From positions 1-64,000 of the IMG/VR virus record IMGVR_UViG_3300032291_001296: DNA of 64,000 bases; one strand, 5' to 3'. The first letter of the stretch is position 1. Each line of letters opens with the position of its first letter. Under the pieces are notes generated by a model that searched no databases, had not been told where the DNA came from, and saw nothing but the letters and a program-made list of their open reading frames with translations. Origin of the DNA: a virus. Below are positions 3,000 through 48,200 of the stretch, in pieces. Position numbers and translations under genes: made by a program.

Positions 3000-3326
3000 A
3001 TGGAAAATCAATTAATTACAATTGAAGAATTAGAAGTGGGAGATGAGATAGTTATTGCTTGTCAGTCTCACATGAAGTATTTAAAAGTGTTGGCAAAACC
3101 AAGACTTAGTAAAACAAAAGTGAAATGGAATACAAACATACCATTGTATACAAATGTTAGATGTTCTACAAAACAAGATGTAATAACAAACACTTATACA
3201 TGGAATGGTAAGTCTTACACAAGAACAGAAAAGGTTTGGAGAGTTACACCAGAAGATCATAACATGACAATTTCCCAAGATCTTAATGATAGAGGTATTT
3301 GGTTAGTAAAAAGAGAAACAATATGA
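3000..3326 (+). CDS. Hypothetical protein
   Basis: 108-aa ORF within the operon. Confidence 0.7.
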   Translation: MENQLITIEELEVGDEIVIACQSHMKYLKVLAKPRLSKTKVKWNTNIPLYTNVRCSTKQDVITNTYTWNGKSYTRTEKVWRVTPEDHNMTISQDLNDRGIWLVKRETI

Positions 3327-6033: not shown

Positions 6034-6035
6034 TT

Positions 6036-6137
6036 ATGGAAAGTGATTGTTGTGGTGCTTCCGAGTGGATGGAAGACACAGGAATCTGTAGTGCTTGTAT
6101 GGAGCATGCAGATTGGAATGAAATAGAAGAAGATTAA
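6036..6137 (+). CDS. 33-aa Cys-rich microprotein (not in ORF track)
   Basis: MESDCCGASEWMEDTGICSACMEHADWNEIEED*, starting 2 nt after the rIIA stop, with CC..CxxC..H. Confidence 0.65.
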   Translation: MESDCCGASEWMEDTGICSACMEHADWNEIEED

Positions 6138-6143
6138 ATTAAC

Positions 6144-6169
6144 ACAGAGTGTCATTTGTGACACTCTGT
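6144..6169. promoter_or_regulatory. Perfect 11-bp intergenic hairpin
   Basis: ACAGAGTGTCA-TTTG-TGACACTCTGT with only a weak U-tract. Confidence 0.6.
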
Positions 6170-6201
6170 TATTAAAAAGTAACAATTAAAATTAAATAAA
6201 A

Positions 6202-22601: not shown

Positions 22602-22847
22602 TTATGCTGCAGTAGTAGTCGTAGTGGTTGTTGCAGCTCTCGTAGTACTAGTTGTAGTAGTAGGAGCAGCTGTGGTAGTACTAGTTGTAGTTGTTGTATA
22701 ATTACAACATTCTTTAGCATCAATTTCTTGATAGTTACCCACCTTTGGTTTAAATGCTTGTACAATTAAACTACTAGGTACAATACGTCCTGATCCATCA
22801 AAACGTACAAAAGCTTTAAGCTTATTATTGTTATTACTTCTAGCCAT
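22602..22847 (-). CDS. Small protein with a mucin-like poly-Thr tail (paralog A)
   Basis: KAFVRFDGSGRIV...KPKVG..ECCNY followed by Thr runs. Confidence 0.8.
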   Translation of the reverse strand: MARSNNNNKLKAFVRFDGSGRIVPSSLIVQAFKPKVGNYQEIDAKECCNYTTTTTSTTTAAPTTTTSTTRAATTTTTTTAA

Positions 22848-22849
22848 GA

Positions 22850-23053
22850 TTATGTTGTTGTTGTAGTTGTTGTTGTTGGTGCAGCTGTAGTGGTAGTAGT
22901 GGTAGTGTAATTACAGCACTCATATGCTGAAATCTCTTTCCATTTACCAACTTTAGGTTTGTTCTTTCTTAGAATCAAACTTCCTGCAACTATTCTGCCA
23001 GATCCATCGAATCTAACATAAGCCTTTAAAGGTCTTGAATTAATGCTTCCCAT
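22850..23053 (-). CDS. Small protein with a mucin-like poly-Thr tail (paralog B)
   Basis: KAYVRFDGSGRIV...KPKVG..ECCNY-T7-AAP-T8. Confidence 0.8.
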   Translation of the reverse strand: MGSINSRPLKAYVRFDGSGRIVAGSLILRKNKPKVGKWKEISAYECCNYTTTTTTTAAPTTTTTTTT

Positions 23054-23071
23054 GTGTTTTTTAATTTATGG

Positions 23072-24088
23072 TTAATAGTTTAGGTTATATTTGTTTTTGA
23101 TTTCGTTTAGCTTAGTGGCATAGAACCACGTACAATATTTTTTTGATTGTTCATCATTAAGAATCATATCCAAGTTAGGATCTTTTGTAGGATCAGTTCC
23201 CATGTGATACTTTCCTTTGTAGAAAGCTGGATAACCATTACCTGTTTCAGAAACTATTCCTGCATTATGAAAGATGGTATGTGTATTAAGTTTTGATATA
23301 GGATCTGTTGCCCATGCAAAAGCTAATTCAGGAACCACTTTAGTTTCCCCATCTCTTAACCATACATTCCAAAGTACAGCCCACATATCTGCACACCAAC
23401 TTTGAAACCCTGAGTTCTCATCTTTAAAGAATTCTCTATTCACTTTCTGTAAATAGGTTCTTATAAGAATACAATCATTCATCACTTTACTCCAGAAGTT
23501 AGCATCTATATTCTTTAATAGATATTGTGCTCCTCCTGAATGATCATTATTAGCTTCAGCAATTTCTCTGCTGATTCCAACAACACTAGCAATCTCTGCT
23601 AGAACATCTCTACCTTTATATTCTTCCAGTTTTTCTGGAAGTACCTGATTAATCTTACTGTCAAAATAACTAGCATTGATGTAACTGTTTGTATCTGATA
23701 GATAGTTTACATCATCTTCTAAGAACTGATCTACGTTAAACTCCTTCATAAAAAGAATATCAGAGTCACAATAGAAGATTGCTTTCTCACTTAACTCTGG
23801 ATGTAATTTAAAATGTCTCCAAAGAACATATGGTCTTAATACAGGAATGTAGATTGCAACTAATGGATTTAAATTATCATCATCTGTATAGTAATGGAAT
23901 TCAGCTTCTGGATATAGATCTTCTATCTGTTTCCACTTATCTCTATTCTCTCTTCCTTTAGGAGTGAATATAAGATTGATTGCTTTGTCAGAATGTCCTA
24001 TTTCTTTAAGACTTTCCATCCACAGGTTTACTTGCCATGTGTAATAAATATCGCTAGGACAAGCCTGGATAAATTTTAAATCTTTCAT
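23072..24088 (-). CDS. Glycosyltransferase resembling plant HPAT/SERGT1 (GT95/GT96) peptide O-glycosyltransferases
   Basis: YYTWQV, YIPVLRP, CDSDILF (DxD), GGAQY, WCADMWA and IFHNAG. The likely start is ATG 24088, because the track's extension reads the upstream micro-gene in another frame. Confidence 0.7.
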   Translation of the reverse strand: MKDLKFIQACPSDIYYTWQVNLWMESLKEIGHSDKAINLIFTPKGRENRDKWKQIEDLYPEAEFHYYTDDDNLNPLVAIYIPVLRPYVLWRHFKLHPELSEKAIFYCDSDILFMKEFNVDQFLEDDVNYLSDTNSYINASYFDSKINQVLPEKLEEYKGRDVLAEIASVVGISREIAEANNDHSGGAQYLLKNIDANFWSKVMNDCILIRTYLQKVNREFFKDENSGFQSWCADMWAVLWNVWLRDGETKVVPELAFAWATDPISKLNTHTIFHNAGIVSETGNGYPAFYKGKYHMGTDPTKDPNLDMILNDEQSKKYCTWFYATKLNEIKNKYNLNY

Positions 24089-24116
24089 AATGTAGTTGGT
24101 TTTTGTTTTAATATTT

Positions 24117-24287
24117 TTAAATTGTAGTGGTGGTAGTGGTTGTTGGTGCAACAGTTGTTGTTGTGGTGGTAGTTGTATTACCACACTCACAAGATGCAAC
24201 ACATGTTAAATATTGTAACTGCTTAGATATCTGCCAAAGCAAATTAGCTCTTCCACTCCATCCAATCTGTCTACTAGGTATAGCCAT
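24117..24287 (-). CDS. 56-aa protein with a mucin-like poly-Thr tail (not in track)
   Basis: MAIPSRQIGWSGRANLLWQISKQLQYLTCVASCECGN-T8-VAP-T7-I*. The N-terminus is near-identical to the neighbouring 24302-24940 protein. Confidence 0.85.
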   Translation of the reverse strand: MAIPSRQIGWSGRANLLWQISKQLQYLTCVASCECGNTTTTTTTTVAPTTTTTTTI

Positions 24288-24301
24288 TTCTTTTTATATT
24301 A

Positions 24302-24940
24302 TTAGTTATACACTTTGATTTCAAGCAATGTAGCATTTAATACATCATCTGTATTAACACCAGTAGTTATTATTCTACTTTCAATTGTAACTGAATCTGC
24401 TATAATTTGACTAGGATACATAGATATAACTTGTTCTAAATTAACATCATAAAATGTTTCACTAGTTACTGTTGTTTTAGATGCTGTAAATAAGTCATCA
24501 GGAGAATAAGCTATATAGTTTCCAACATTTGAGTATTGAAAAACTATATTACCTAATGTATTTTCTAATACATTAGCTCTAGGAGCTCCTATATTATATT
24601 CTAAAATGCTATCTCCCCAATCATTAGGTGTTGTTCCTGTAGCTATAAATGTTGTTCCTAAATTATTATTAGGTGCACCTATATTTGTAAAGTCTCCAGC
24701 AACTCCACTTCCTCCAGCTGCTATTGTGTATGTAACACCAATAACTGTATCTCCTCCACTTTTAGTATCTGGATCATCTACTCCACTTTGAGTTAACAAA
24801 GCAGTGAACACTTTATATGTAGGTGCATTGTTTACACAAGCATTATATGTTACATTAGTAAGTTGCTCTAATTGTTTAGAGATTTGCCAAAGTAGGTTCT
24901 CTTCTGTTCCCCAACCTATCTGTCTAGATGGTATAGCCAT
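24302..24940 (-). CDS. Putative virion fibre/decoration protein
   Basis: MAIPSRQIGW..NLLWQISKQL N-terminal module, a Y.I..G..DFT.IGA.NN..G..F.ATG tail-repeat-like motif and a beta-rich C-terminus. Confidence 0.6.
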   Translation of the reverse strand: MAIPSRQIGWGTEENLLWQISKQLEQLTNVTYNACVNNAPTYKVFTALLTQSGVDDPDTKSGGDTVIGVTYTIAAGGSGVAGDFTNIGAPNNNLGTTFIATGTTPNDWGDSILEYNIGAPRANVLENTLGNIVFQYSNVGNYIAYSPDDLFTASKTTVTSETFYDVNLEQVISMYPSQIIADSVTIESRIITTGVNTDDVLNATLLEIKVYN

Positions 24941-27039: not shown

Positions 27040-27047
27040 TATCTTTG
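27040..27047 (+). promoter_or_regulatory. Bacteroidota -7 promoter for the multi-domain GT gene
   Basis: TATCTTTG, 18 nt before ATG 27066. Confidence 0.65.
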
Positions 27048-27065
27048 TTTTTAAAAATCAACACT

Positions 27066-30000
27066 ATGCCTTACAGTTTTACCTACTTCAAAGATGAAGT
27101 GAAAGAGTGGTTCCTTGAGAACGTTCCTACTAGTAAAAGAATACTAGATGTTGGTCCTGGAATAGGGACTTATTCAGACTTATTGCGTTCATTAGGATAT
27201 AGAATGGATGCTGTAGAAATCTATGAACCATACATAGAGAAGTATAATCTTAGAACTAAGTATGATAATGTTTTTATAGGAAGCATTGTTACATTTGATA
27301 TTAATGATTATGACTTTATTATTCTAGGAGATGTGTTAGAACATATTCCTACAAACTATGCAAAAGAACTAATCAGAGATATTGTTAGTGCAAAGAAAGA
27401 ATGTTTAGTGGCTATACCATATGAGATGGAACAAGGAGAACATGAAGGTAATATTCATGAGACTCATTACCAACCAGACCTTACACATGAAGTGATGGGT
27501 GAAAGATATCCAGAGCTTACTTGTATATACAGGAATGAATACTATGGCTATTATATGCATACACATATAAAAGAAGAAAAAATGTATGTATTATATGCAA
27601 ATGCATCTTATTATGATGTTGTGTGCATGGCTGTAGAAAGTATTAAGAAGGTAAGTGATGTTCCTGTACTAGTCTATATGCTTGATGATTATAGAGAAGT
27701 ACCTGGTGCATACACTGTATGGTGGAAGTGTGATGTAGAAGACTTACCGAAAGAAGAATATATAGATAGAAATAAGTCTAGTGTATACAAGTTATTGATC
27801 CAAAGACCTCTTATAGTGAAGGATGCTCTTGAAAGATTTGCTAAGACTGTATGTTATGTAGATTCTGATAGTGTGGCTACAGCTAATGTAGATGATATAT
27901 TTGGATGGTATGATGAACAATCTTGCTATCCATATTTCACTGAAGGTATATATGATTATCTATTCATTAATGGAAGAGGTAGTAATGAATTCTCTAGAAC
28001 ATTAGAACGTCCAGCATGTGAGTTATTTGGGGTAGATCAATCTGTTAGAAGAAAATATAGACAGACAGGTTACTTTGTAGCAGGTCAACATACTATTCCG
28101 TTCTTAGATGAGTGGAGTTGGATGTGCAATCACCCAGAGGTATTAAAGAACCCACAATACTATGCTCCTTATCACGAAGAGACAATAGTGAATGTGTTGT
28201 TATGGAAACACAAGTTCTTAGATGGTCTTCCTTATATATACACTAATGCTGGCCTAGATAAGTTTGATAGAGTGTATAATGAAGATAATTGGGGCAAGTA
28301 TTTAGAATCTTGGTTCAAGATACCAGAGAGTGAGGATCGATTGTTCTTCTTACATGGAGAGAAAGATCCTGTTAAAATGTCTAAACTAATGTCTAAACTA
28401 CCTTCAAAAATGTCTAAACCTTTGAGAATATTATTCCTTGCTCCTCATTTATCTACAGGAGGTATGCCACAGTTTCTTCTTAAGAGAATACAAACACTGA
28501 AGGATTACACAGATGTAGAAATAGCTGTTATAGAATATCAATGTCATAGTTTAGACTTTGTTGTACAAAGAAACAAGATAAGAGATCTAATGCCAGCAGG
28601 TAAGTTTGCTACACTATTTGAAAACAAACTAGAACTGTTTGATCACATTAAAGCATTTGAACCAGATATTATCCATATAGATGAAATGTCCGAGAGACTT
28701 GATAGAGATATGATCACTAGATTGTATGCTGATGATAGAAAATATAGAATCATAGAAACATGTCATGATGTATCTTTTGTACCAGACACAAAGATATTTA
28801 TACCAGATGCATTTGCATTCTGTAGCCCTTATCATATGGATACATTTGCTAAGCTTGATGGATATAAACAAGTGATTGAGTATCCTGTTGAGTTTAACTT
28901 CATGGGATGGAATGAGAAAATTGGAGCACAAGCAAATCTTGGAATGGATATAACAAAGAAACATGTTGTAAACATAGGACTTTGGACTAAAGGAAAGAAC
29001 CAGGGAGAAGGACTAGAAGTAGCTAGACAGATGCCAGATGTACACTTTCACTTTGTAGGTAATCAAGCTGGTAACTTCATAGACTATTGGGAACCATTAA
29101 TGGAAAATGTTCCAGAGAATGTAACTATATGGGGAGAGAGAACAGATACAGATGCATTTATGAAAACTGCAGATGTATTTATGTTTAATAGCACATGGGA
29201 ATGTAATCCACTAGTGCTTAGAGAAGCTATCAGTTATGGTAAGACTATTCTTGCTAGAAACCTTCCTCAGTATAAAGATATGTTCACTAAGTATATAACT
29301 AATCTAAATCCTATTATGATTGCCGCACAGATAAGAAATCTTTTAGAATTCCCTGCAAAATATCCTATACCAACTGATAACTTACCAATGGTATTTGCTA
29401 ATAACAATTGGAACTTGTATAAGTATGCAGCGTCTGTTACTCCACAGAAAAACAATATAAATGATTATAACATCATACAGAACTTTGTAGGCCAACCATT
29501 CTTAGAGATAACTGGTACATCTACTAGTGACTTTCGTGTAGAGTTTTATGATGGTGATGTATTAGTACATAGTGATGTAATCAAATGTAACCATTGGATA
29601 AAACTTGCTAGAGAGTATTATACACAGTGGAGAACAGTTGTATATAAAGATGGAGAAAAGGTGTATGATAAACTTCTAGATCTAGAAGGTAAGAGAGTGT
29701 ACATTGCTTTTGAGAGCTCTTCTTTAGGAGATACAATAGCTTGGATACCATATGCATTAGATTTCAAGGTGAAACATAAGTGTGACGTGATTGTAAGTAC
29801 ATTCAAGAACTTCTTGTTTGAAGGTGCATATCCAGAGCTTGAGTTTGTTGATCCAGGGACCAATGTAACTAATCTGTATGCTATGTACAAACTTGGTTGG
29901 TTCTATAATGAAAACAAAGAGCCAGTACTTCCTAACACTATACCCTTACAGCAGACAGCTACAAACATTCTAGGTCTTCCTTATGAAGAAGTCAAACCAA

Positions 30001-30515
30001 GAATTGCATATGAAAAATCACCTGTTGAAGGTATGTATGTAACTATTGCAACTAATAGCACATCTGGATGTAAGTTCTGGACCAGAGAACATTGGCAAGA
30101 GGTAATTAATTACTTACATGACCAAGGATATAAAGTGATAAATGTATCACTAGAAGATAATCCATTTGAGAACTGTCAAGGATTACTTGACAAGTCAATT
30201 GAAAATACTATGCGTGTCATTGATGAAAGCATATTCTTTATAGGATTATCTAGTGGACTTAGCTGGTTAGCATGGGCTCTTGATAAAGAAGTGATAATGA
30301 TCTCTAATTTCACTGAAGCTAATCATGAGTTCCAATGTCATAGACCAGTGAATACAAGTGTATGCCATGGATGTTGGAATGATCCACAATATACATTTGA
30401 TAAAGGAGATTGGGACTGGTGTCCTGTTCATAAAGGAACAGACAGGCAGTTTGAGTGTCAGAAAAGTGTTACACCAAATATGGTGATAGAAGAAATAAAA
30501 AAGCTCCTTAAATAG
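27066..30515 (+). CDS. Multi-domain enzyme: SAM methyltransferase + GT-A + GT4-like GT-B + TibC/Aah-like protein O-glycosyltransferase
   Basis: ILDVGPGIG/GDVLEH; YVDSD; APHLSTGGMP/ECNPLVLREA; SLGDTIAW, FIGLSSGLSWLAWA and VCHGCWND..WCP.H..FEC.K. Confidence 0.85.
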   Translation: MPYSFTYFKDEVKEWFLENVPTSKRILDVGPGIGTYSDLLRSLGYRMDAVEIYEPYIEKYNLRTKYDNVFIGSIVTFDINDYDFIILGDVLEHIPTNYAKELIRDIVSAKKECLVAIPYEMEQGEHEGNIHETHYQPDLTHEVMGERYPELTCIYRNEYYGYYMHTHIKEEKMYVLYANASYYDVVCMAVESIKKVSDVPVLVYMLDDYREVPGAYTVWWKCDVEDLPKEEYIDRNKSSVYKLLIQRPLIVKDALERFAKTVCYVDSDSVATANVDDIFGWYDEQSCYPYFTEGIYDYLFINGRGSNEFSRTLERPACELFGVDQSVRRKYRQTGYFVAGQHTIPFLDEWSWMCNHPEVLKNPQYYAPYHEETIVNVLLWKHKFLDGLPYIYTNAGLDKFDRVYNEDNWGKYLESWFKIPESEDRLFFLHGEKDPVKMSKLMSKLPSKMSKPLRILFLAPHLSTGGMPQFLLKRIQTLKDYTDVEIAVIEYQCHSLDFVVQRNKIRDLMPAGKFATLFENKLELFDHIKAFEPDIIHIDEMSERLDRDMITRLYADDRKYRIIETCHDVSFVPDTKIFIPDAFAFCSPYHMDTFAKLDGYKQVIEYPVEFNFMGWNEKIGAQANLGMDITKKHVVNIGLWTKGKNQGEGLEVARQMPDVHFHFVGNQAGNFIDYWEPLMENVPENVTIWGERTDTDAFMKTADVFMFNSTWECNPLVLREAISYGKTILARNLPQYKDMFTKYITNLNPIMIAAQIRNLLEFPAKYPIPTDNLPMVFANNNWNLYKYAASVTPQKNNINDYNIIQNFVGQPFLEITGTSTSDFRVEFYDGDVLVHSDVIKCNHWIKLAREYYTQWRTVVYKDGEKVYDKLLDLEGKRVYIAFESSSLGDTIAWIPYALDFKVKHKCDVIVSTFKNFLFEGAYPELEFVDPGTNVTNLYAMYKLGWFYNENKEPVLPNTIPLQQTATNILGLPYEEVKPRIAYEKSPVEGMYVTIATNSTSGCKFWTREHWQEVINYLHDQGYKVINVSLEDNPFENCQGLLDKSIENTMRVIDESIFFIGLSSGLSWLAWALDKEVIMISNFTEANHEFQCHRPVNTSVCHGCWNDPQYTFDKGDWDWCPVHKGTDRQFECQKSVTPNMVIEEIKKLLK

Positions 30516-30524
30516 GAGCTTCTT
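30497..30524. terminator. Probable bidirectional terminator overlapping convergent stops
   Basis: AAGCTCCT-TAAAT-AGGAGCTT flanked by an A-tract. Confidence 0.65.
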
Positions 30525-30687
30525 CATTTACGTAAGGTTGTTCATCATACCAAGTCCATCCATCTACTGGATAGGTGTATGTATCTTTTAATTCTTTTTC
30601 TAAAGTATAATCTGGTGCATACACAAAGTTAGGTGCATATATCCAATTATCATCTTCTAGTTTGTAAAAACCTGCTGTTGTTTCCAT
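30508..30687 (-). CDS. 59-aa protein, possible fibre-assembly factor (not in track)
   Basis: METTAGFYKL...YAPNFV...YTYPVDGWTWYDE..., directly after the LRR fibre gene. Confidence 0.7.
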   Translation of the reverse strand: METTAGFYKLEDDNWIYAPNFVYAPDYTLEKELKDTYTYPVDGWTWYDEQPYVNEEAPI

Positions 30688-30691
30688 ATTT

Positions 30692-32878
30692 TTATCCTGT
30701 TACGGTCCACCCTTTAGCTGTTGCAATTGAACGTGTGCATCCAGCTGCTCCTGTGCAACCTGTTATGTTGATTGTTTTTGATGTTATTGTTGTTAAATCT
30801 GTGAACAATTGATTTAATGCTGTAATTCCTAAATCACAATAAGAAACATTTATTTGTGGTGATGATCCTGACCATTGTCCTGCTCCTGTATTTAATAATC
30901 TTAATGAATTTAATCTGTTAAAATTTGATGTTGTATTTTGACCATTTAATGTTAATGATGAAAAAGGACAACTAAAACTTAATGATGTTATTGAATTCAT
31001 ATAACTATATGTTCCTCCATTAATAGTTCCAGTTACTAAAGGAGTAGCTGTTAAACTTCCTAATTTAGCTAAATTAGTAATAGTTGTTAAATTTGAACAT
31101 CCAAAAAACATAGAGGCTATACTTGTTAATCCTGATGTTTGTGTTGTTGGTAATGTTAAAGTCTTTAAGTTAACACAATTTAAAAATGAACTATTGTAAG
31201 TAGTTAAAGATGCAGATACAGTAGCTGGCATAGTAAGTGTTTCTAAAGAATAACATGAATTGAAAGCGTTACTAAAATCAGTACAAAGAGACATACTTGT
31301 AGGCATTGTGACTGACGTTAAATTATAACAACTTGAAAACATTATGTTTGCTGTAGTTACATTATTCATTGTAGAAGGGAACGTAACAGAAGTTAATCTG
31401 AAACAGGTTTGAAAAGTAGAAGATAAAGAAGTTACAGCTGTTAAACTTGTAGGCATTACTATTGTTTCTAACTTGCTACATCCTGAACACATACTTACCA
31501 TTGTCGTGCAACTATTTTGAGCGTTATTTGGTAATGTAATTGAAGTTAAATTAGAACAGGCATTAAACGTGCTTTGTAAACTTGATATAGTCCATGCAGA
31601 TGGTATTGTAATAGATTTTAAACTAAAACAATTGACAAATGTGGAAAGCATAGTCACGTTTGTTCCAACTGTTGATGGTAATGTAACTGAATTTAATAAA
31701 TAACAACTATTAAAAGTATTGGACATGTTACTTAAATTAGTCATTCCTGATTGAAAAGTAACACTTGTTAAAGAATAGCAGTTTTGAAAAGCTCCTGATA
31801 ATGTACTTGCATTAAAATTTGTTGGAAATAATAAATTTTTTAAAGACGAACACGCTGAAAAAGCAGACACTGCATTATATGCCGCATTAGATGAACATGA
31901 AGATGGAAAATATACATTTTGTAATTGAGAGCAGTTTGCAAAGGCGCTACTAATACTAACTATAGTACTTGGTGATGCAGGAGTAGGTAATGATGTAAAT
32001 TTAACCCATTGCAATGAATTACAATTAGCAAGTAAACTAGTTAACGATGTGCATAAATTTATACTCGGAAATGTTACATTTTTTAAAGAATTACATCCAC
32101 TAAAAGTAGATGTCATAGCGGTACAACTATTTAAAGTTGTAGGAAAAGATACTGTTCTTAAATTAGTACAGTTTTGAAAACTACTTTGTAAACTAGTTAT
32201 TCCTGTTGCATTTGATGGAAATGTTATATCTCTTAAGTTTGAGCAGTTATTTGCCATAAAACTTACATCATTTAATGCAGATGCTGATGTAGGCATTATA
32301 ATCTTATATAGATTAACACAGTTTTGGAACATGTAACCTAGTTGTATAGTCCAATCAACTGTTGAAGGTAGCTTTACATATTCTAAATATTGAAAAGAAC
32401 CTGAAGACGCACTAGTATTAATAGAGCTAAAATAATATATATTAAATGCAGTTGTGTTACAAGTTCCGTTTCCAAAATAAGCTTCTAATAAACCTATATT
32501 ATAGAAACCACCTGATACAGAACGATTAGCTATGTGTTGTGCATTTGTTATTACACAAGTGGCATCTCCATATATTCTAATCTTCCAAGTATTATATCCT
32601 CTTGAACAAGGTGTACCCCCTGTTGAATAAACATGAGATGTAGTTGTAGATGCTGTAGATGAAATAGTATCAGTAACCCCATCTCCCCAATCTATATAAA
32701 TATTTCCTGAACTACGAGTAAATGTTGTAATAATAGAAAATGCTTTTGATCCCTCATCACATACTAAAAATTGCACCTCATTAGGAGTATCAGTAATTGC
32801 TATCCAATCTGAAGGTCTTACCCAATCAGATGGTGTTGCTATAGGTGCTATTGAGTTTATAGGTACGTTAAATGCCAT
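30692..32878 (-). CDS. BspA/LRR-repeat receptor-binding-like protein
   Basis: IDWGDG (PKD-like) N-terminus, many F.NC..L..(I/V).(F/L/M)P repeats and a C-terminal AKGWTV. Confidence 0.75.
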   Translation of the reverse strand: MAFNVPINSIAPIATPSDWVRPSDWIAITDTPNEVQFLVCDEGSKAFSIITTFTRSSGNIYIDWGDGVTDTISSTASTTTSHVYSTGGTPCSRGYNTWKIRIYGDATCVITNAQHIANRSVSGGFYNIGLLEAYFGNGTCNTTAFNIYYFSSINTSASSGSFQYLEYVKLPSTVDWTIQLGYMFQNCVNLYKIIMPTSASALNDVSFMANNCSNLRDITFPSNATGITSLQSSFQNCTNLRTVSFPTTLNSCTAMTSTFSGCNSLKNVTFPSINLCTSLTSLLANCNSLQWVKFTSLPTPASPSTIVSISSAFANCSQLQNVYFPSSCSSNAAYNAVSAFSACSSLKNLLFPTNFNASTLSGAFQNCYSLTSVTFQSGMTNLSNMSNTFNSCYLLNSVTLPSTVGTNVTMLSTFVNCFSLKSITIPSAWTISSLQSTFNACSNLTSITLPNNAQNSCTTMVSMCSGCSKLETIVMPTSLTAVTSLSSTFQTCFRLTSVTFPSTMNNVTTANIMFSSCYNLTSVTMPTSMSLCTDFSNAFNSCYSLETLTMPATVSASLTTYNSSFLNCVNLKTLTLPTTQTSGLTSIASMFFGCSNLTTITNLAKLGSLTATPLVTGTINGGTYSYMNSITSLSFSCPFSSLTLNGQNTTSNFNRLNSLRLLNTGAGQWSGSSPQINVSYCDLGITALNQLFTDLTTITSKTINITGCTGAAGCTRSIATAKGWTVTG

Positions 32879-32882
32879 TGGT

Positions 32883-33185
32883 TTATACTGTTGTTTCTGT
32901 TATTACTAGATTCACTACTATATCAGCTTGTGGAGGGAATTGAGCATAAAATGTTGCTTCTCCTGCTGCCACTCCTATATAAGGAAGTATATTTGCATTA
33001 TATGCTGTTTGATAACTTGCATTTTGAGGTGTTGCTGATACATCAGAATTTGCAGTAATCCATCCTGCATATAATGTATATAAATAATATCCTCCTGATA
33101 AAGTCCAACCTGCAGCAGATAATGTTAGTGATGATACTCTTAAAGGTGTTGATCCTCCTCCAACTGTTACTCCATTTATTTTCAT
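32883..33185 (-). CDS. Small beta-rich fibre-associated protein
   Basis: TLSAAGW motif, located between fibre genes. Confidence 0.6.
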   Translation of the reverse strand: MKINGVTVGGGSTPLRVSSLTLSAAGWTLSGGYYLYTLYAGWITANSDVSATPQNASYQTAYNANILPYIGVAAGEATFYAQFPPQADIVVNLVITETTV

Positions 33186-33196
33186 AATTTTTTATT

Positions 33197-36100
33197 TTAT
33201 AATTCTATCCAAGTATTATCTGGATCAAATCTTATGATGTATAAACCATTGTTTTGACTTCCTGTGTTCCAATAAGTGTATCCAATAAGTCTAACAACTT
33301 TTCCAGCACTAGTTGTTGGTACATCTGAACAATTACCAGCAGACTCTAAATATAAAGGAGATCCCTCATAAGAACTTAGATTAGTAGTAAATGTTGTAGA
33401 AACAAAACCTCTAATCAATACTTCTATAGGTTCATTACCTGCAGTTGTATTAGTTAAACAAACACCTAACATATTTATTGATTCTTCATTAGCAGAATCA
33501 TGTTGTGCTACATCCCACTTACCTCCATATAAACTTCTATATATTATTTGTCCTTTTGAAAGTACAGCATTTGAATATTCATATGCTAATATTTCTCCAG
33601 TTGCTACATAAGTTGTATTAGCTCCCCATGATTGTAAATCACTTAATACTGAAGTAACACCATCATACACTTCATAATTAATAGGTGCTACTACAGCTCC
33701 AGCTACAAATGAATTAACAGGAGCATTAAAAATACAATTAGCTTCTGCAACTATTCCTCCAGCACCATCTGATGTCAACACTTGATTGTCTGAACCAGAT
33801 ACAGTAGGAGATACACCACTAGTACCTGATGTACCATTAGTACCATTAACACCAGCAGTACCTGACGTACCTGTGGTACCTGAACTACCTGATGTACCAC
33901 TAGACCCACTTGATCCTGCAGTTCCACTTGTACCAGTTGTTCCAGAAGTACCAGTCGTACCACTGCTTCCAGAGGTACCTGATGTTCCGTTTGTTCCATT
34001 CACTCCAGAACTTCCTGAGGTGCCAGAACTTCCTGATGAACCTGAGCTTCCACTAGTACCAGATGTACCACCAGAACCATTAGTTCCACTTGTACCTGAA
34101 GAACCTGAAGAGCCCGAAGTTCCTGTAGTACCTGATGTAGCAGAAGATCCTGAACTACCACTTGTACCACTTGTTCCTCCTGTACCATTAGTAGCAGAAG
34201 TTCCACTTGTTCCAGTAGTTCCCGAGGTACCATTAATACCTGAGCTTCCAGAAGTACCACTAGTTCCTCTAGATCCAGATGTACCTGAAGTTCCTGTTGT
34301 ACCAGAAGTACCAGATGTAGCACTCGTACCTGAGGTACCAGTTGTTCCAGATGTACCTGTTGTTCCTGAAGAACCTGAGGTAGCTGAAGAGCCACTTGTA
34401 CCTGATGTACCATTACTTCCATCTCCTCCTGTAGCACCATCAAGGTTGACAGACCATGTACAATAGAATCCTGATCCCACAGTTCTTGTAGGAGCAGCAA
34501 ATACTAATACCCCTGTACTAGGATTATAAGATACTACTTCACACTCTTGGTAATTAGTAGCATCGTATGCTATTATGATAGATTGAGCTACTGTGTACGC
34601 TAAGTTAGTTCCTACAGTGATTGTACCACTATTACCTAACGTAAAACATGTAGATGATGTTGTTGCAAATTTATCTCCAGAATATCCCGAAGTACCTGAT
34701 GTTGCAGAGCTTCCACTACTTCCTGAAGAACCACTAGTTGCACTTGTACCAGAGCTACCACTTGTAGCTGATGTACCTGAAGTACCACTCGTTGCAGAAG
34801 TACCAGATGTACCTCCTGTAGAAGATGTTCCAGAAGTTCCTGCTGAACCATTTGTTCCACTTGAACCACTACTTCCACTAGTACCATTTGTTCCATTTAA
34901 TCCTGAGGTACCAGATGTACCTGTACTTCCACTAGTTCCACTAGAACCACTTGTTGCAGAAGACCCAGAAGTTCCACTAGTTGCGGATGTACCTGATGTA
35001 CCACTAGTTCCATTAGTTCCATTAATACCATTAGTACCGTTGATTCCTGATGTTCCTGAACTTCCACTAGTAGCTGAAGTTCCAGATGTACCAGAGGTTC
35101 CACCTGTACCATTAGTACCTGATGTGCCTGAAGAGCCACTAGATCCAGTTGTACCACTAGTTCCTGATGATCCACTAGTAGCAGATGTACCAGAGGTTGC
35201 AGAAGTACCTGATGTTCCAGTAGTACCTGACGTAGCACTAGTACCAGAAGATCCTGATGTACTACCTACAGAAACACCTATTTGTTTTGTTACAACAATA
35301 ACTGAAGGTGCTGCAGGTGCAGTGTATGGAGAAGATTTAGCAGCCTTAGCTGTTAATTGAACATTTGCATTTGAAGAAGAAAATACAATCTCTAAATAAT
35401 CATTAGCATTTAAATTTAATATAAAGGATACATACGGTAGTTGTAACACACCATCTGATGTAATACTTAAGTATGAATCTGTTCTGACAATATCGTTACC
35501 ATTTTTTCTGATCCATATTTCTAAGTCTGTACTTGCTCCACCAGTTTTTTCTACTTGTAGAGAATATCCAAATTCATATATACCAGCATATGGATATCTA
35601 ATCTGTTGACCAAAATCTAAGATGATACCATTATCTATTTCTGTTGTATTATATGTAACTACTGTTGGAGTATTTGCTCCTGTGATAACTTGATTTCCAT
35701 TATCAGAGTAACTTGCATACCAGTTAGCTATAGCAGCTCCAGATGAACCATTTAGTCCACTAGATCCACTACTACCAGCAGTACCACTTGTCCCTGATGT
35801 TCCTGTAGTACCAGAAGTTCCGCTACTACCAGATGTGCCTGATGATCCACTTGTGCCCGAAGTACCTGTTGTTCCACTAGAGCCACTTGTTCCATCAGAT
35901 CCAGATGTTCCACTAGATCCGCTAGTACCTGTAGTACCTGAGCTCCCACTAGTTCCTGTTGTGCCACTACTTCCAGATGTTCCATCTGTTCCAGAAAATC
36001 CACTTGTACCACTAGAACCACTAGTCCCTGTTGTACCTGATGTACCTGTTGATCCAGAGCTTCCTGAGGTTCCACTTGATCCACTAGTTCCAGTAGTTCC

Positions 36101-36982
36101 ACTGGTTCCTGTTGTACCACTTGTTCCTGTACTTCCAGAGGTCCCAGAAGAACCAGAACTTCCATCACCACCACTAGTTCCATTTAAGTTAACATCCCAT
36201 ATACAATAGTTACCACTACCCACTACTATTGTAGGGCTAGCAAAAACTAAATCTCCTGTAAAAGGATTATATGATGTTACTACAGATTCTTGATAGTTAG
36301 TAGCATCATATGCAATAACAATTGATTGACCAGGAGTGTATGCCAATCCTATATCAACACTTAATGTTCCTGAGTTACCTAATGTAAAGCAATCTGTAGA
36401 AACTGTTCTATATTTATCACCATTTAATCCTGATGTACCGCTAGTTCCACTCGTTCCATCTGTACCGCTTGTCCCAGTAGTACCAGAGGTTCCAGAGGTT
36501 CCTGTAGTTCCAGAGCTACCAGAAGATCCAGTTGTTCCAGAACTTCCACTTGTTCCTGTGCTACCACTAGTACCGCTAGTACCTGTTGTCCCACTTGTAC
36601 CTGTTGTACCGCTAGTACCATTGATTCCTGAAGTACCACTTGTGCCATTAGTCCCAGATGTTCCACTAGTACCTGCTGTTCCACTTGTAGAAGAACTACC
36701 AGATGATCCTGAAGACCCACTAGTACCTGTGGTACCAGAAGTTCCTGAAGTGGCAGATGTACCACTAGTGCCTGAGGTTCCTGACGTACCACTGGTACCA
36801 GAAGTACCACTAGTCCCATCAGCACCAGCACCAGAACATAGTCTATCATTAATTTTCTTTAATGCAGATTCAAGGGTTTCATTAGTATTAATACCAGTAC
36901 ATATCAAGTTAGGTCCTTCGTAAAATACACAGGACGCACTTAATAATATTGGGCAAGGATTAGCTGCACAAATTACACTCAT
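33197..36982 (-). CDS. Collagen-like (Gly-Thr/Ser-Ser)n fibre with interspersed globular domains
   Basis: Four long G-X-Y blocks dominated by GTS/GSS/GTT, a duplicated ~80-aa domain, a C1q-like domain and a C-terminal beta domain. Confidence 0.85.
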   Translation of the reverse strand: MSVICAANPCPILLSASCVFYEGPNLICTGINTNETLESALKKINDRLCSGAGADGTSGTSGTSGTSGTSGTSGTSATSGTSGTTGTSGSSGSSGSSSTSGTAGTSGTSGTNGTSGTSGINGTSGTTGTSGTTGTSGTSGSTGTSGSSGTTGSSGSSGTTGTSGTSGTTGTSGTDGTSGTSGTSGLNGDKYRTVSTDCFTLGNSGTLSVDIGLAYTPGQSIVIAYDATNYQESVVTSYNPFTGDLVFASPTIVVGSGNYCIWDVNLNGTSGGDGSSGSSGTSGSTGTSGTTGTSGTTGTSGSSGTSGSSGSTGTSGTTGTSGSSGTSGFSGTDGTSGSSGTTGTSGSSGTTGTSGSSGTSGSDGTSGSSGTTGTSGTSGSSGTSGSSGTSGTTGTSGTSGTAGSSGSSGLNGSSGAAIANWYASYSDNGNQVITGANTPTVVTYNTTEIDNGIILDFGQQIRYPYAGIYEFGYSLQVEKTGGASTDLEIWIRKNGNDIVRTDSYLSITSDGVLQLPYVSFILNLNANDYLEIVFSSSNANVQLTAKAAKSSPYTAPAAPSVIVVTKQIGVSVGSTSGSSGTSATSGTTGTSGTSATSGTSATSGSSGTSGTTGSSGSSGTSGTNGTGGTSGTSGTSATSGSSGTSGINGTNGINGTNGTSGTSGTSATSGTSGSSATSGSSGTSGSTGTSGTSGLNGTNGTSGSSGSSGTNGSAGTSGTSSTGGTSGTSATSGTSGTSATSGSSGTSATSGSSGSSGSSATSGTSGYSGDKFATTSSTCFTLGNSGTITVGTNLAYTVAQSIIIAYDATNYQECEVVSYNPSTGVLVFAAPTRTVGSGFYCTWSVNLDGATGGDGSNGTSGTSGSSATSGSSGTTGTSGTTGTSGTSATSGTSGTTGTSGTSGSRGTSGTSGSSGINGTSGTTGTSGTSATNGTGGTSGTSGSSGSSATSGTTGTSGSSGSSGTSGTNGSGGTSGTSGSSGSSGSSGTSGSSGVNGTNGTSGTSGSSGTTGTSGTTGTSGTAGSSGSSGTSGSSGTTGTSGTAGVNGTNGTSGTSGVSPTVSGSDNQVLTSDGAGGIVAEANCIFNAPVNSFVAGAVVAPINYEVYDGVTSVLSDLQSWGANTTYVATGEILAYEYSNAVLSKGQIIYRSLYGGKWDVAQHDSANEESINMLGVCLTNTTAGNEPIEVLIRGFVSTTFTTNLSSYEGSPLYLESAGNCSDVPTTSAGKVVRLIGYTYWNTGSQNNGLYIIRFDPDNTWIEL

Positions 36983-36994: not shown

Positions 36995-37384
36995 TTAGTG
37001 AACAATTTTAAGAAAGTCTCCTGTACGATATACTTGACCAGCAACTAAGCCAGCAAATAATGCTGCTGCATTATTAGGATATTCAGGAGTTGATAAAGGT
37101 GTAGTTAATACAAGACTCCAATCAGAAGCTCCTGTACCTACAGCTTTAGCAAAATACAGCATAGACTTAGCTGTATTTAAATAAGTTTGTCCTAGATATT
37201 TAGCAGATGTACTAGGAGCAGTTGTACCAGATAGAGGTACTAAATTAGTATTTATCTTACCTAATATAGTAGGTAGGTTGTCCAAAGGAGCAACGTCTAT
37301 GTTAGATAGATAGGAGCCATTGTATATGATGCATAAAGCATTTTCATATGTGGCACATGTTGGGCAAATTGCAGCTGTTCTCAT
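36995..37384 (-). CDS. Virion protein sharing a Cys-containing N-terminal module with the fibre
   Basis: ICPTC..A.CIIY.G..L.I....L..IL.KIN aligns with the fibre's IC..PC..ASCVFYEG..L.I....L..AL.KIN. Confidence 0.65.
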   Translation of the reverse strand: MRTAAICPTCATYENALCIIYNGSYLSNIDVAPLDNLPTILGKINTNLVPLSGTTAPSTSAKYLGQTYLNTAKSMLYFAKAVGTGASDWSLVLTTPLSTPEYPNNAAALFAGLVAGQVYRTGDFLKIVH

Positions 37385-42205: not shown

Positions 42206-45200
42206 TTATTGATTACAACCTTGATCTTCTTGGTCTTTTATAGTTTTCTTTTCTTCAGGAGTTGTAGCATCCCATTCTTCTTGTGTTACACTATCAGGTT
42301 TTTCACTTACAGTTTCTGTAGGTTCAACTATCACTTCAGAAATACCTTGATATATCATTACAACATCATTGTCACTCACCTCACCTGATTTGATTTGTTT
42401 ACCTTGAGCATCTGTAGCTTTCTCTACTTTCTCATATCCATTATCTAATACAGATGATCTTTCGTAATCATAATATTCCTGAGCTCTGAATGAATCTCCC
42501 CATGCGTTGATAGCTTTGAAGATGTGTTTCACATACACCTTTCCATTTTTTTCAGTTACATCAACCAATGGAATTGGATTACCTTTCTCGTCTTTTGTAT
42601 ATACTTTTTGTAATAACACTTTATGTATGTGAGAGTAGTCTCCATTTTTCTTTCTTTTCATTCTTTCTGCATAAGGAATAGAATCTTCCCAGCTATATGT
42701 AATGAAATCATTTCTTCCATCACCAAAAGGACTAATACCTATCACCATTGGAAGAGCTCCATTATTCATAGCTTTCTTCAATTGTCCAGGTGTAAAGTAT
42801 TGATTAGGATCATATAAGTTAGCACCTCTTCCATAATTAGATTTATTCAATAGCATCTTAGCTTTCATAAATGGAATGATGGTATAATTATTCCAGTTAT
42901 TTCTTTCAAAAACACGTAGCTTTTGGAAGTCAGCTAAGTTAGGCATATTTTCTAAATTAGACAATGTTTGATTATATATTTCTTTGAAATCTTTATAAGG
43001 AAGAAGGTTAGTGAAAGCAATAGGAGAATTAGTAAGTCCTGATTGAATTACAGCAAGTCTTACAAGTTTTCCATAAAGATCTTTTCCTTCACCATCTAAA
43101 TACTTTTTCAATTCTTCAAATCCATATATGATAAGGTTTTGATCATACACTTTATTATCTCTTCCTGCAATATATAGATTATCAGCTTTACCTTCTTTAA
43201 TACCAGCTTCCATCTTAATAGAGTTAAGAATGATGTTATTGAATAATGGATGATCCTCTTTAGGAGCAATTCCTTTGTGTTTGTTTCCTAATATAGAATC
43301 TCTGAAGTTAATGATCTGTTGAGCAGCACTTTCTTTTGTACTGGTTCCTAATAATATATTTGCAACATTAATATTAATGTTTCTATCAGTTTGTACAGCC
43401 CAGTCAAAAAGATCATTCACTGCTTTCTGACTCACCTTAACAAACTCTCTATCACTTAGTTTCACATAAGGAGTTAACACTTCTTCCATTACAGATCTTA
43501 CATTAACTTTATCAGATATAAGGATTTCAGAAAACGCATCTCTTACATTAAATATAGTGTCTTTAAGAACTCCTTTAAATGAACTACTTAATAGTTTATC
43601 TACAGAAGAGATGATAGATTTTCTAGCTTTCTCTAATTGAAGTCTTTTCTTAAATACTATATATGGATCATTGATTACAGCAGTATCAAAGTTAGATCCT
43701 TGTACTACATCAAACAATTGAGATGCCATTTTAGAATACTTGATAAACTCTTTTAGTATGTATTGCTGTTGTAGTTTTTGAATACCATCCATTTCATTTT
43801 TCATTCCAGCTTTATTATACTTAAGCATTTTAAATAGATCAGCTTCTGATGGAATTCCAGAAATAGTAGGTCTTTGTTTAACAGGTATAGATGATTCATA
43901 TGCCTCTAATGTAGAGTTCATTATACCATCATTAAATAACCACGTGTATCCATTGTTATCTAATGAACGTAGGTAGTCTTTAATGATAGGTTGGTTCATG
44001 AAATACGCAACAGTATTTACAGGTACACCAACTTTAATTAAGAATAACCAAGTGGAAGCTACGTTTTGTGTAGCACCAAGTCTCATAATCCATGGACCCT
44101 TAGAGATATCCACATATCCATCTATGAACTGTCCAATGATATCAGATATATATTTACCAGCTTTGTTCTTAATTAATGATAGAGTAGGTCTTATTTTACC
44201 ATCAACTACAATTGTATTATACTCTTCAAAGTTAATATTTGGATCAGTAGCAAATGTATTTGAAAGTGGATTACCACCTAGTATTTCTCTATCTACAGGG
44301 TCAACATCTTTTAATTTATCAAAATCAATATATGTTGCAACACGTTGATTATCAGCATTGTTAGTTTGACCAGTAGCAGCAATACCAATTGCATATTTAC
44401 CAGATACAAACGCTTGTCTTAAAGCAGACATAAATGTTCTACTTAACATGTTTCCTACATTACCATAGTCAATCTCTGGATTACCCATCTCTTCATTAAT
44501 CTCTATAGATAGATTCTTCATCTCATCTGCAGAGTTAGGTTTGATTAAGTTTTCAAAGTTTGATTCATGACTAACTAAGTTCTGTAATGATTGAATATAT
44601 GCATTCTCAAGAGATTGTTTATACCATACCTCTGCTTGTTGTTCTGCCCAAACTTCAGTTAATGCTTCATCTGTAAGCTTTTCTAATTTTCCTTGTTTCT
44701 CTTGGATAGTTTTAATTAATTGAGCTTGTACCTCATCAGCATCTAATTGACCATCTTGAACTTGTTCTGGGAACCAATCAGTGATGATAGGTAACCATTT
44801 GTTTCTAGTGTAGTCATCAGCTGTACTATCTATAATATTTTGGAATATTTCATAAGTACCTTTAGATGAGTTTACAGATTTTGCTTGTTTGTAGATTTCT
44901 GCATTATTATTTTCAATAGCTATAGCTTTGAATTTATCAATAGCTTGTTGACCATATCCTAAGAAAGGAACCATTCTTAATTTTCCTGAAGCATCAGAAT
45001 ATACATTCTTTAAGTAGATCGATAATTTATCGATATCAAAATCCGATCCAACCTTCTTAACAAGAGCTGAAGGAACAACAACGTTATCACCAAAGTCTTT
45101 TGGTAAGAATTGTTTGATAACAAAACTATCAATAGAGTTTTGTTTCTGTGTAGGAATACGATATCCAATACCAGATAATATAGACTTACCTTCGTCTGTA

Positions 45201-48200
45201 TCGTTTAGATAATCAAGAAGTTCTTTATCTGACATGTTTCTAGTTTGAGCATTGTCAAACCATCTAGAAATCATTATCTCACATACACGCTCACCATCTG
45301 CATTTTTATAAAACTTAAGTATATCAGATGTATAGCTGTATTTAACATTTCCTTTCTTGTCTTTGAATTCTTTTCCTTGAATACGATTAGACTCAAGAAG
45401 TGTAGAAGGAATCTGTACCTTCATACCTCCTGTTATTTTTTGAGAAGCAATGTTTTTATCAGCAATAGAATAAAGAATATTTCTAATTTGTTGGTATGCA
45501 GGAGTAGCTTCTAATACAACATCACCAGATTTAAATCCTTCAAGAGCGTCAGTGATATTATCATTCACCTCTCTCTTCAATATCTCATCACTTAATGTTT
45601 TGATCAGTTTGTCTTTATCTAATATGGTGAATGTAGCTTTACCATTTTCATCAACTCCTTGTGTAATACCAAGTTTTTTCAATAGAGTTTTATATCCTTC
45701 CTCTATCTTAGCTTCAAGAAGTCTTTGGTTGTTTGCTATCTCTTTGTATAATGGAGAAGCTTTTTCTTTTTCTGCTTCTGTTTTAAGCTCACCCCATGCA
45801 ACAAAACGTTCATTGATATCTTCAATAACATTTCCTTTCTTATCTTTAATCTCAAAGTCAATTGGTACACCAGCATCCATGAAGTCCATGGTTACAAGTT
45901 TTGTAATCTGAGATCCTTGAGTTACTACTGGGTTATCTTTAGAAGGAACCTCAGTTTGTAATCCCATAATAGAGAATGGAATGTTATTTAACTCTTTAAA
46001 AGAAGCTTCATTGAATTCTCCTGAAGGAAGATAAAGAGGAGTAGCTTCACCAGCTCCCACTTTTCTACCTGATGCATATACAGCATAATCTGCATTCTCT
46101 CTTTGCATTTTATTATACATCTTAATTGCATTTGAATCAGGATTTAATTCATGCATTATTCTAAATGATAATGGAACCAAAGCGAACTTATCTAATACAA
46201 CATCATTGTAGTTTTGTCCATCCACTTTATTTCCTGATACAATAGGTTTAATAGCAGTGTAAAGACTTCTTATGTTAGGATTTTTTCCAACGTATCTAAC
46301 TTCACCAGATGAGTCAGTTGTCTTTTTAATATTAAATGCTTTCTCCTCATCAGTAAGAACAAGTCCTTGATTTCTTTTTTCTTCTTCTGTTAACCCTTCG
46401 CCTTTAACAACTTTCTCATATGCTATATCATATCTATATTGTTTCTCTTTAGCATCATTCCATTGACCTGTACGAAGAAGGAATACACGAGTTGCTTTCA
46501 ATGAAATCAATCCACCACCATCTGTTTCTTCATATGCTTTCATGTATTCTTCAAAGTCTGCAGTAGAGAATACATCATCAATCACTGTAGATACAAAATG
46601 ATCTACATTCATATCTGTATATCCTATATCTCCAGGAGCAAACCCTTTATTGTATTGCTCATTTAATGCAGAATTAACTTTGTTAGAACCATATAATAAA
46701 GCTTGTCTAGGTGAGTTAAAGTTTTTAATACGTTTCAACTCATCATTATATTGATAAGGATCTGAATAAACAAGTTTATGCATCTCTATATTAGCTATCA
46801 TATAGTTAGTAGATAACACTTTCAACTTGTTCTCATATTCTTCTTTTGATAAAACATCATCTTCAGAGAATGATAATCCTTCAGTTTCTACTCCTTCAGC
46901 AGTCGTGTATACAGCACCAAATTCTCTAAGTACTCTATCTGTAGTTGATGCATCTTGAGCTATGAAACTATTAACAGCAGCGTTTATTTCTTTCTTATTA
47001 TCTTCATATAGTTTTTCTGCAGATTTTTTAGAATTAGTTTTAGACATAATCTGATTATGTAGCTTATCTCCTAGAATAGATTTGAAGAAACGTAAGTCTG
47101 TTGATTTTCTATCACCAACTACTTTTCTTCCATCTCTAGCAAGTGCCACTTCAGCCATAAAATAATTTCTAAAAATCTCTAAGTGCTTACCATTTTTAAA
47201 TGCTTCTTCTGTAACAAATGGATCATCCTCATTATGCATCTTAATAGCATGCTCAATAGAAGCATCTCCTGGTACAAGGTTCTCATATATACCTCCTAGG
47301 TTAAGATTGATTCCTTGTAAGAATCTTTGTTTAGCAGAAAGCTTAGAACTCTCTTTCTTGTTACCAGTTTGTTCATTAACTGTTCCATCAATGAACACAG
47401 GTTTCATAAGATCTTCTGTACCAGCAATACGTCCACCATCACCATCTTCTGCTAAGTCAAACATCTTATTTAACATCACGCTACTATCTTTAGCAAATAC
47501 GTCTGTTAATAAATAGCTGTATGAAGAGAACCCTTTAGTTGCATCATTTAACTGTCTGATGTTACTTAATTTAGAAAGTACATCATGAATAGAACTAATA
47601 GCATTAGTTCCAATAAATGATTGTGTACGCTCTCCATTGATATTGAAATATGTACTTTCAAAATCAGGGTTTTCAAGAATAGCTTTTATAGTTCCTAATT
47701 GAGTAAGACGTTTATCTATATCCAATGTCTTAGCACTAAGTGTAGCAACATCTTCTAATCCAGCTAAACTTTTTTGAATTCCTTCTACAGCTTTTCTAAA
47801 TAATCTAAGTTGATCAGGATTCAAACTATTTTTAATTTGGTCTCCAGTCATTGGTTTTTTAGAATCTCCTATGATAAAGTTTATTCCCATACCTTGCAAG
47901 AATGCAACATATTGATCTAATTGACCTGAATTAAATTTAATGTTTTTAGTAATTGTTTTAGGATTGTATTTTTGTGTTTTAGTGTTGTAGAATAAATAAT
48001 CATTGTTATCTGTTCTAGTTGCTTCAATGATGTTATTAATCATCTCACGCTTAGCTTGTCTAGCAGCTCCACTTAATACAGAGTTACCAATCACCACTTC
48101 ACCTGAAGGAAGAATAAACACTGTAACAACATCTGCATTCTGTTTCTTCATTGCGTTCCAGAAAGCTGTCATTAATTGAAGATCATGTTGTTTCAATGAA

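Follow-up and report, generated by a model that had tools for sequence, protein, structure and literature searches.

A four-domain phage enzyme with a TibC/Aah-type domain and a proline-poor collagen-like fibre as its candidate acceptor

The first 64,000 nucleotides of the IMG/VR virus record IMGVR_UViG_3300032291_001296, here called the window, contain a gene for a four-domain enzyme (27066–30515, + strand) and, 2.7 kb from it, the end of a gene for a long collagen-like fibre rich in Ser and Thr (33197–36982, − strand). The question raised by this locus is on what such an enzyme acts. We consider it likely, from sequence comparisons, that it forms a cytoplasmic glycosylation line on a single polypeptide and that it targets the phage's own fibre. 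Its C-terminal domain belongs to the bacterial autotransporter heptosyltransferases (BAHT), the family of TibC and Aah, and relatives of this domain are found beside proline-free (Gly-Thr-Ser)n proteins, hereafter (GTS)n, in phages as well as in bacteria.

The enzyme and its TibC/Aah-type domain

In the program-made list of open reading frames (ORFs) the enzyme ORF runs from 27045 to 30515 on the + strand with a TTG start at 27045, and the residue numbers below are counted from this TTG. Translation almost certainly begins at the ATG at 27066, giving a protein of 1149 aa, since relatives align from residue 8; the same start was used in the original prediction, made from the letters of the window. 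The C-terminal domain (29460–30512) scores 268.9 bits on TIGR04414 over residues 846–1154, against a curated equivalog cut-off of 200 (271 bits in the genome search), and the enzyme matches TibC (PDB 4rap) with an E-value of 1.3e-49 in phmmer. A model of residues 791–1156, with a predicted local distance difference test (pLDDT) score of 90.1, has an eight-strand N-terminal beta-barrel and superposes on TibC with a template modelling (TM) score of 0.87 and a root mean square deviation of 2.4 Å over about 369 columns, at 31% identity. Against WaaC, the heptosyltransferase of lipopolysaccharide (LPS) synthesis, the TM score is only 0.47–0.49, and TIGR02193 gives 26.2 bits against a cut-off of 185.3. 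The Pfam family Glyco_transf_9 is matched with 30.5 bits; this family and the GT-B superfamily are shared by the phage domain with WaaC and WaaF of glycosyltransferase family 9 (GT9), which lack the beta-barrel and the iron finger. A plain GT9 enzyme acting on LPS is ruled out by the TIGR04414 score and by the TM scores on TibC and WaaC, and the relationship to TibC and Aah that had been proposed from the motifs SSSLGDTIAW, IGLSSGLSWLAW and CHGCW...WCP...FEC, all of which are present in the enzyme, is therefore genuine.

The residues needed for TibC activity have been mapped by Yao et al. 2014 and include Asp110, the catalytic base, Thr226 and Lys230, which contact the phosphates, Trp305, which contacts the sugar, and the cysteines of the iron finger (PMC4358343). 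The equivalents in the phage enzyme are D896, T1006, K1010 and W1074, and Cys339, Cys342, Cys358 and Cys370 of the finger correspond to C1107, C1110, C1126 and C1138, which are predicted to bind iron. None of the eight positions varies among the 95 relatives sampled from phages and genomes, and judged from these residues the catalytic machinery of the domain is intact. Other positions differ from those of TibC. The position of Arg286, which contacts the adenine N1, is occupied by Thr in 56 of 60 phage domains, whereas the four autotransporter-linked enzymes sampled all keep the Arg, and the thumb segment has 14 residues in the phage domains versus 23–24 in the autotransporter-linked enzymes, with the tip residues Phe265 and Val266 that build the TibC dodecamer being deleted. 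Pro300 of TibC, which selects between D,D- and L,D-heptose, is Ser in the phage domain, as it is in Aah.

The phage domain thus has much in common with the TibC–TibA and Aah–AIDA-I systems of E. coli (TIGR04414; PDB 4RAP/4RB4; PMC4358343), namely the barrel, the GT-B core, the four-Cys finger, the catalytic Asp and the phosphate and sugar contacts, as well as the arrangement of a cytoplasmic enzyme gene beside a gene for a long, repetitive, Ser-rich surface protein as the expected acceptor. It is a BAHT domain by sequence, fold and catalytic residues, and it differs in its partner, its thumb (about nine residues shorter) and Arg286. In place of a beta-helical autotransporter the partner has (Gly-Thr-Ser)n repeats, either as a collagen-like fibre or, in bacteria, as a small (GTS)n protein; no autotransporter gene lies beside the phage enzyme, whereas AIDA-I or AIDA-repeat genes adjoin two of the plasmid enzymes sampled. 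The phage domain is moreover fused to a GT4, a GT-A and a methyltransferase domain. In a tree of the domains four plasmid enzymes, from a sampling biased by the search pattern, are split from all 95 collagen-linked domains by a branch with an SH-aLRT support of 100; two of the four adjoin AIDA-type genes and a third is located near a YadA-like gene. The enzyme near the YadA-like gene, annotated as BAHT on plasmid p1 of Burkholderia sp. FERM BP-3421 (L125, 5650–6972), has no equivalents of Asp110, Thr226, Lys230 and Cys370, and may be a non-catalytic relative.

The four-domain parse given in the original prediction holds, as judged from Pfam and NCBIfam matches, natural variants and a fold model. 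The N-terminal domain is a class I S-adenosylmethionine (SAM) methyltransferase (27066–27554, residues about 8–170), with 36.1 bits on Methyltransf_23 at residues 16–108 (cut-off 27) and 23 bits on Methyltransf_11 (cut-off 21.2). The GT4 domain, of GT-B fold (28410–29459), gives 36.7 bits on Glycos_transf_1 at residues 637–768 against a cut-off of 26.4. Residues 175–455 have no family match in Pfam or NCBIfam, and a sequence-profile search of this region against the PDB gave only a marginal GT8-type match (E 0.14). An AlphaFold model of residues 175–456 (AlphaFold2, from 14 homologues; pLDDT 89.7) has the GT-A fold, and the domain (27567–28409) contains a DxD motif in which D273 and D275 are invariant in relatives. 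The nearest PDB structures are retaining GT6 ABO transferases (best E-value 6e-8, TM 0.53), which make up all of the top 50 fold matches (E about 1e-7, TM 0.5–0.55), and with 13–14% identity and no Pfam match the likeness to GT6 is one of fold, membership of the CAZy family being no more than possible.

The domain borders, at about residues 170/175, 455 and 805–810, were placed with the help of natural variants of different length: proteins of about 700 aa begin near residue 456 and consist of GT4 and TibC-like domains, those of about 990 aa begin near residue 175, and those of about 1150 aa hold all four domains. The methyltransferase domain is missing in the two shorter forms and an FkbM-type methyltransferase is found instead in others; among the phage forms both the methyltransferase and the GT-A domain can be present, absent, or exchanged for FkbM, GT25 or GT32-like domains. 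In most of the fused phage forms sampled the GT4 domain lies directly N-terminal of the TibC-like domain, the exception being a shuffled form of about 1600 aa in one lineage, with GT4 at the N-terminus and FkbM and DUF6165 added at the C-terminus. Such swapping of modules is the behaviour expected from a glycan assembly line with phage-specific products. The family is large, with 1496 clusters (50% identity) at E ≤ 1e-3 and 723 at E ≤ 1e-30 in an exhaustive HMMER search, and most of the best 150 clusters are multi-domain proteins of 600–2000 aa. Four metagenomic relatives (P0005, P0014, P0022 and P0050) each contain three or four separate stretches of TibC-like sequence, suggestive of BAHT domains in tandem.

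The collagen-like fibre and its pairing with the enzyme

The fibre ORF encodes 1261 aa with 189 strict G-X-Y triplets, 281 Ser and 240 Thr and only 21 Pro; a Ser/Thr-rich G-X-Y fibre does lie within about 3 kb of the enzyme, as first noticed. Within the triplets X is Thr in 65% and Y is Ser in 67%. The protein scores 251 bits on Pfam Collagen (PF01391) in 14 stretches and has four collagen-like blocks, which may form a triple helix, with globular beads between them. Its N-terminal 50 aa are conserved in 19 related loci and its C-terminal tip is found in one only, as would be expected if the fibre is attached by a constant end and varies at the distal one. The coding pattern for (G-S/T-S/T)4 has 79 matches in the whole 103-kb genome, and all 79 are inside the fibre gene. 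In the fibres of phages and in the bacterial neighbours alike, Ser takes the Y position in about 70% of the triplets. BAHT enzymes are directed at Ser, and the acceptor motif is therefore consistent with an enzyme of this type.

The pairing was followed through 80 IMG/VR loci with a relative of the TibC-like domain and 38 further loci in bacterial or archaeal genome contigs. Nearly every IMG/VR locus with enough downstream sequence has a proline-free G-X-Y ORF, usually convergent and 0–5 kb off, with 70–95% Ser/Thr at X and Y. Counted by lineage (70% identity clusters with full 6-kb flanks), a proline-free, Ser/Thr-rich G-X-Y ORF is located within 6 kb of the enzyme gene in 23 of 26, and such ORFs number 0.73 per 10 kb in the vicinity of the enzyme gene but 0.09 per 10 kb farther away. 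The co-occurrence of TibC-like genes with GTS-repeat fibres that the original prediction had suggested to look for is consequently seen across phages, and it extends to bacteria; the association is strong at the level of the genomes. In full-text literature searches no paper was found that links TibC or BAHT enzymes to phages or to collagen-like repeats.

Phages with the same gene order, gathered through a 1580-aa structural protein encoded in the window, allow enzyme and fibre to be compared in a shared background. Both are present in the window and in L127/L004, L140, L141 and L145, and neither occurs anywhere on syntenic contigs with a completeness of 86% and 98%. At least three changes in the state of the fibre can be placed on the tree of the neighbouring protein, and the enzyme has changed with it in three of three independent contrasts. 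The pair is also found on independent phage backbones: in the 735-kb phage LR756501 a G-X-Y ORF, a GT4 protein and a GT4–TibC fusion are found consecutively.

A further independent backbone with the pair is that of a cultured phage, Microcystis phage Mel-JY01, where a fusion protein of 1227 aa has a TibC-like domain at its C-terminus (317 bits on TIGR04414) and a G-X-Y ORF of 805 aa lies 1.7 kb upstream of its gene. This ORF is one open frame at 635–3052 of the + strand (L082, PP395634.1) and has 149 G-X-Y triplets with 84% Ser/Thr in X and Y. In the deposited annotation the region holds a hypothetical CDS at 739–2298 of the − strand and a short CDS at 2519–3052, and the collagen-like gene is probably mis-annotated. 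A "cytidylyltransferase-like" gene near the fusion gave a marginal Pfam match and no NCBIfam match, and was not used.

The bacterial relatives are mostly stand-alone proteins of 370–430 aa and are encoded directly beside small proteins with (GTS)n tracts. In most of the eight such neighbours inspected the N-terminus resembles a signal peptide or that of a lipoprotein. Among the taxa with such loci are Methylococcales, Arenicellales, Polaromonas, Burkholderiaceae, Schekmanbacteria, Binatia, Ignavibacteria and Lentimicrobiaceae, and their G+C contents range from 25% to 69%. In three genomes of 4–5 Mb the (GTS)n coding pattern is present at only one or two places, and it adjoins the enzyme gene in two of the three. 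In Methylobacter sp. NZ_CP197401 (G001) a long, near-perfect (GTS)n tract at 2151606–2151856 is about 480 kb from the TibC-like gene, and substrates need therefore not adjoin the enzyme. Small predicted lipoproteins flank a stand-alone TibC-like gene on an Arenicellales chromosome (L097, OZ244198; 8504–8917, 11160–11771 and 12113–12574) and in L095 (3730–4128), and each has a Gly/Ser/Thr G-X-Y tract and a C-terminal poly-Asp tail (DDDDD). Two contigs binned as archaeal, from a Thermoplasmatales metagenome-assembled genome (MAG; L098) and a Nitrosotalea MAG (L119), encode fused TibC-like proteins of 804 and 996 aa with Ser/Thr G-X-Y ORFs nearby, and may be viral contigs or archaeal viruses.

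Proposed glycosylation of the fibre and its alternatives

In the proposed mechanism the enzyme works on the fibre polypeptide in the host cytoplasm. The BAHT domain would place the first sugar on the hydroxyls of Ser, and possibly Thr, in the (Gly-Thr-Ser)n repeats; it is taken as the first transferase because it is the sole domain whose relatives are known to glycosylate proteins. The chain would next be lengthened by GT4 and by the GT6-like GT-A domain, and methyl groups would be added to it by the SAM methyltransferase, with a densely O-glycosylated fibre as the product. The sugar coat might stabilize and hydrate a triple helix that has neither proline nor hydroxyproline to rely on, and shielding of the fibre or adjustment of its adhesion are further possible effects. 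What the coat does for the fibre is inferred, as are the acceptor residue, the donor and the sequence of the reactions.

The default guess for the first sugar is heptose from host ADP-heptose. The nearest relatives on genome contigs are in Bacteroidota MAGs, with 60% identity in Sediminibacterium and 67% in Lutibacter, which hints at the phylum of the host. Many Bacteroidota had been thought to lack ADP-heptose, and this part of the original prediction is weakened by three of the four related MAGs (Sediminibacterium, Lentimicrobiaceae and Saprospirales), where rfaE domain II is found above the cut-off together with a close GmhA homologue; in the Lutibacter MAG, which is incomplete, no ADP-heptose genes were found. 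The other part, that the donor might be a different one, still stands, since with Arg286 replaced by Thr the nucleotide part of the donor may differ.

Glycosylation of collagen-like repeats has precedents outside viruses. According to two papers, glycosylation of Thr turns (Gly-Pro-Thr)10 from a coil into a triple helix and the collagen-like regions of BclA are glycosylated (PMC11923368, PMC8968730). By analogy, a helix lacking both Pro and Hyp is a plausible client for stabilization by glycans. BclA of Bacillus anthracis and B. cereus and the cuticle collagen of Riftia resemble the phage fibre in having Thr-rich G-X-Y repeats in which O-glycosylation is thought to stabilize or hydrate the helix without hydroxyproline, and differ from it in being non-viral and of the Gly-Pro-Thr type with proline (PMC8968730, PMC11923368). 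The phage enzyme combines glycosyltransferases with a methyltransferase. The glycans of BclA carry methylated sugars as well, and the enzymes that glycosylate BclA and the Riftia collagen are, to our knowledge, unrelated to BAHT. In mycobacteriophages, phage-encoded glycosyltransferases and methyltransferases reportedly modify the phages' own structural proteins in the host cytoplasm, the acceptors reported by Freeman et al. 2023 being the C-termini of capsid and tail-tube proteins and the enzymes coming from separate genes. The phage of the window would likewise use a glycosyltransferase and a methyltransferase of its own on its own proteins, and it differs in the proposed acceptor, a collagen-like fibre, and in the fusion of the activities into one polypeptide of BAHT type. 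We know of no BAHT-type enzyme among the virion glycosyltransferases of mycobacteriophages.

Several points weigh against fibre glycosylation as set out here. For the whole clade the support is comparative throughout, and shared descent of the gene order could account for much of the adjacency in phages; with no more than three pairs the contrast test does not reach significance (p 0.25). Three lineages have no G-X-Y neighbour although their flanks are complete, namely a stand-alone 362-aa group in IMG/VR, L112 and L114, and LR756504 has no G-X-Y ORF within 20 kb. The quaternary structure and the donor may differ from those of TibC, because the shortened thumb and the change of Arg286 to Thr concern features that are both needed for TibC activity in E. 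coli. No GmhA, HldE/PfkB or cytidylyltransferase (CTP_transf_like) genes were found in the 103-kb record (89% complete), so the phage appears to lack a heptose pathway and the donor must come from the host. Finally, other acceptors are possible because the phage has many poly-Thr tracts and a second glycosyltransferase.

Such acceptors, instead of or besides the fibre, could be the poly-Thr/Ser tails and linkers of many structural proteins of the phage, runs of this kind being found in more than 10 ORFs of the genome, and multi-domain enzymes may serve several acceptors. In the bacterial pairs, however, it is (GTS)n and not poly-Thr that is carried by the neighbours of the enzyme, and where the G-X-Y fibre is missing in related phages the enzyme is missing too. 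The nearest candidate is the BspA-type leucine-rich repeat (LRR) protein encoded between the enzyme and fibre genes (30692–32878, − strand; 175 bits on LRR_5), which is directly beside the enzyme gene, has 31% Ser+Thr and had been put forward as a second substrate. It has a homologue in only one of the 80 related loci and is not a conserved partner, so its role as a co-substrate was dropped for lack of comparative support. Modification of proteins other than the fibre, alone or in addition, is thus judged unlikely. Action on the host, on its LPS, capsule or surface proteins, for instance to block superinfection, with the link to the fibre due to hitch-hiking in a cassette, is what published interpretations would favour: phage glycosyltransferases are usually regarded as host-directed, and papers on such genes near collagen-like genes assign them to modification of DNA or LPS (PMC7029224, PMC10202952). 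Domains of the GT9, GT4, GT25 and GT6-like types are typical of LPS and capsule synthesis, and the enzyme gene is an isolated + strand gene located between the early genes and the structural block. The C-terminal domain is nevertheless of the BAHT type by its scores on TIGR02193 and its superpositions on WaaC and TibC given above, (GTS)n proteins adjoin the enzyme in bacterial chromosomes where there is no phage fibre cassette, and enzyme and fibre co-vary in the syntenic phages, all of which makes a host-directed role rather improbable. The TibC-like domain could lastly serve to bind or chaperone the repeat protein, leaving only the other domains enzymatic. In favour of this, the phage clade has changes in the thumb and at Arg286, and the L125 plasmid relative without the Asp, Thr and Lys indicates that non-catalytic members exist, but the equivalents of Asp110, Thr226, Lys230 and Trp305 are invariant in all 95 collagen-linked members, as expected under selection for catalysis, and we give this possibility very little weight.

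If the enzyme does glycosylate the fibre, the BAHT family gains a second class of substrates, probably larger than the autotransporters, and it could be explained how very long, proline-free Gly-Thr-Ser "collagens" of phages fold and survive. There would be a widespread and compact route to virion glycosylation in environmental phages, where glycosyltransferases are usually assumed to be directed at DNA or LPS, and a glycan coat on the fibres would matter for the recognition of hosts, the stability of particles, the binding to mucus or polysaccharide and immune recognition. Glyco-engineering, too, could make good use of a single-chain enzyme together with a simple (GTS)n tag. The proposal is directly testable, as the same pair is carried by the cultured phage Mel-JY01. 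In its broadest form, to which we assign an even chance, these enzymes would constitute a large undescribed branch of BAHT dedicated to the O-glycosylation of proline-free (Gly-Thr/Ser-Ser)n collagen-like repeats and not of autotransporters, in fibres of T4-like phages, cyanophages and huge phages and in small secreted proteins from many phyla of bacteria; the glycan would replace hydroxyproline as the stabilizer of the triple helix, the phage members would be assembly lines, and the donor would possibly not be ADP-heptose.

Surrounding genes of the window

The complete virus record has 103,353 bp and is 89% complete by CheckV. The nearest cultured phages give remote matches only, with 24–25% identity, and one of these matches is a crAss-like gut phage. 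Genes resembling rIIA and rIIB are located at 3733–7725, and the window also contains a long block of very large structural ORFs on the − strand. This block includes a single ORF of 4430 aa (42206–55498); its neighbours of 1580, 862 and 778 aa have no match in PHROG, and one of 1125 aa has a weak match only (E 7e-5).

A terminator-like hairpin, recognized from a consensus match only, lies over the stop codon of the enzyme gene (30501–30521, + strand), between the convergent genes. Directly downstream of the fibre gene there is an ORF of 100 aa (32883–33185, − strand) with no PHROG match, and directly upstream of it an ORF of 129 aa (36995–37384, − strand) with a weak match to a tail protein (phrog_25268, E 5e-5).

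Another glycosylation gene is found on the other side of the enzyme. In the region 22602–24940 of the − strand a second glycosyltransferase (23072–24202, phrog_4417) is encoded among three micro-proteins with poly-Thr tails, and poly-Thr/Ser runs recur in the more than 10 further ORFs mentioned above. The second glycosyltransferase and the poly-Thr proteins may constitute a separate glycosylation system.

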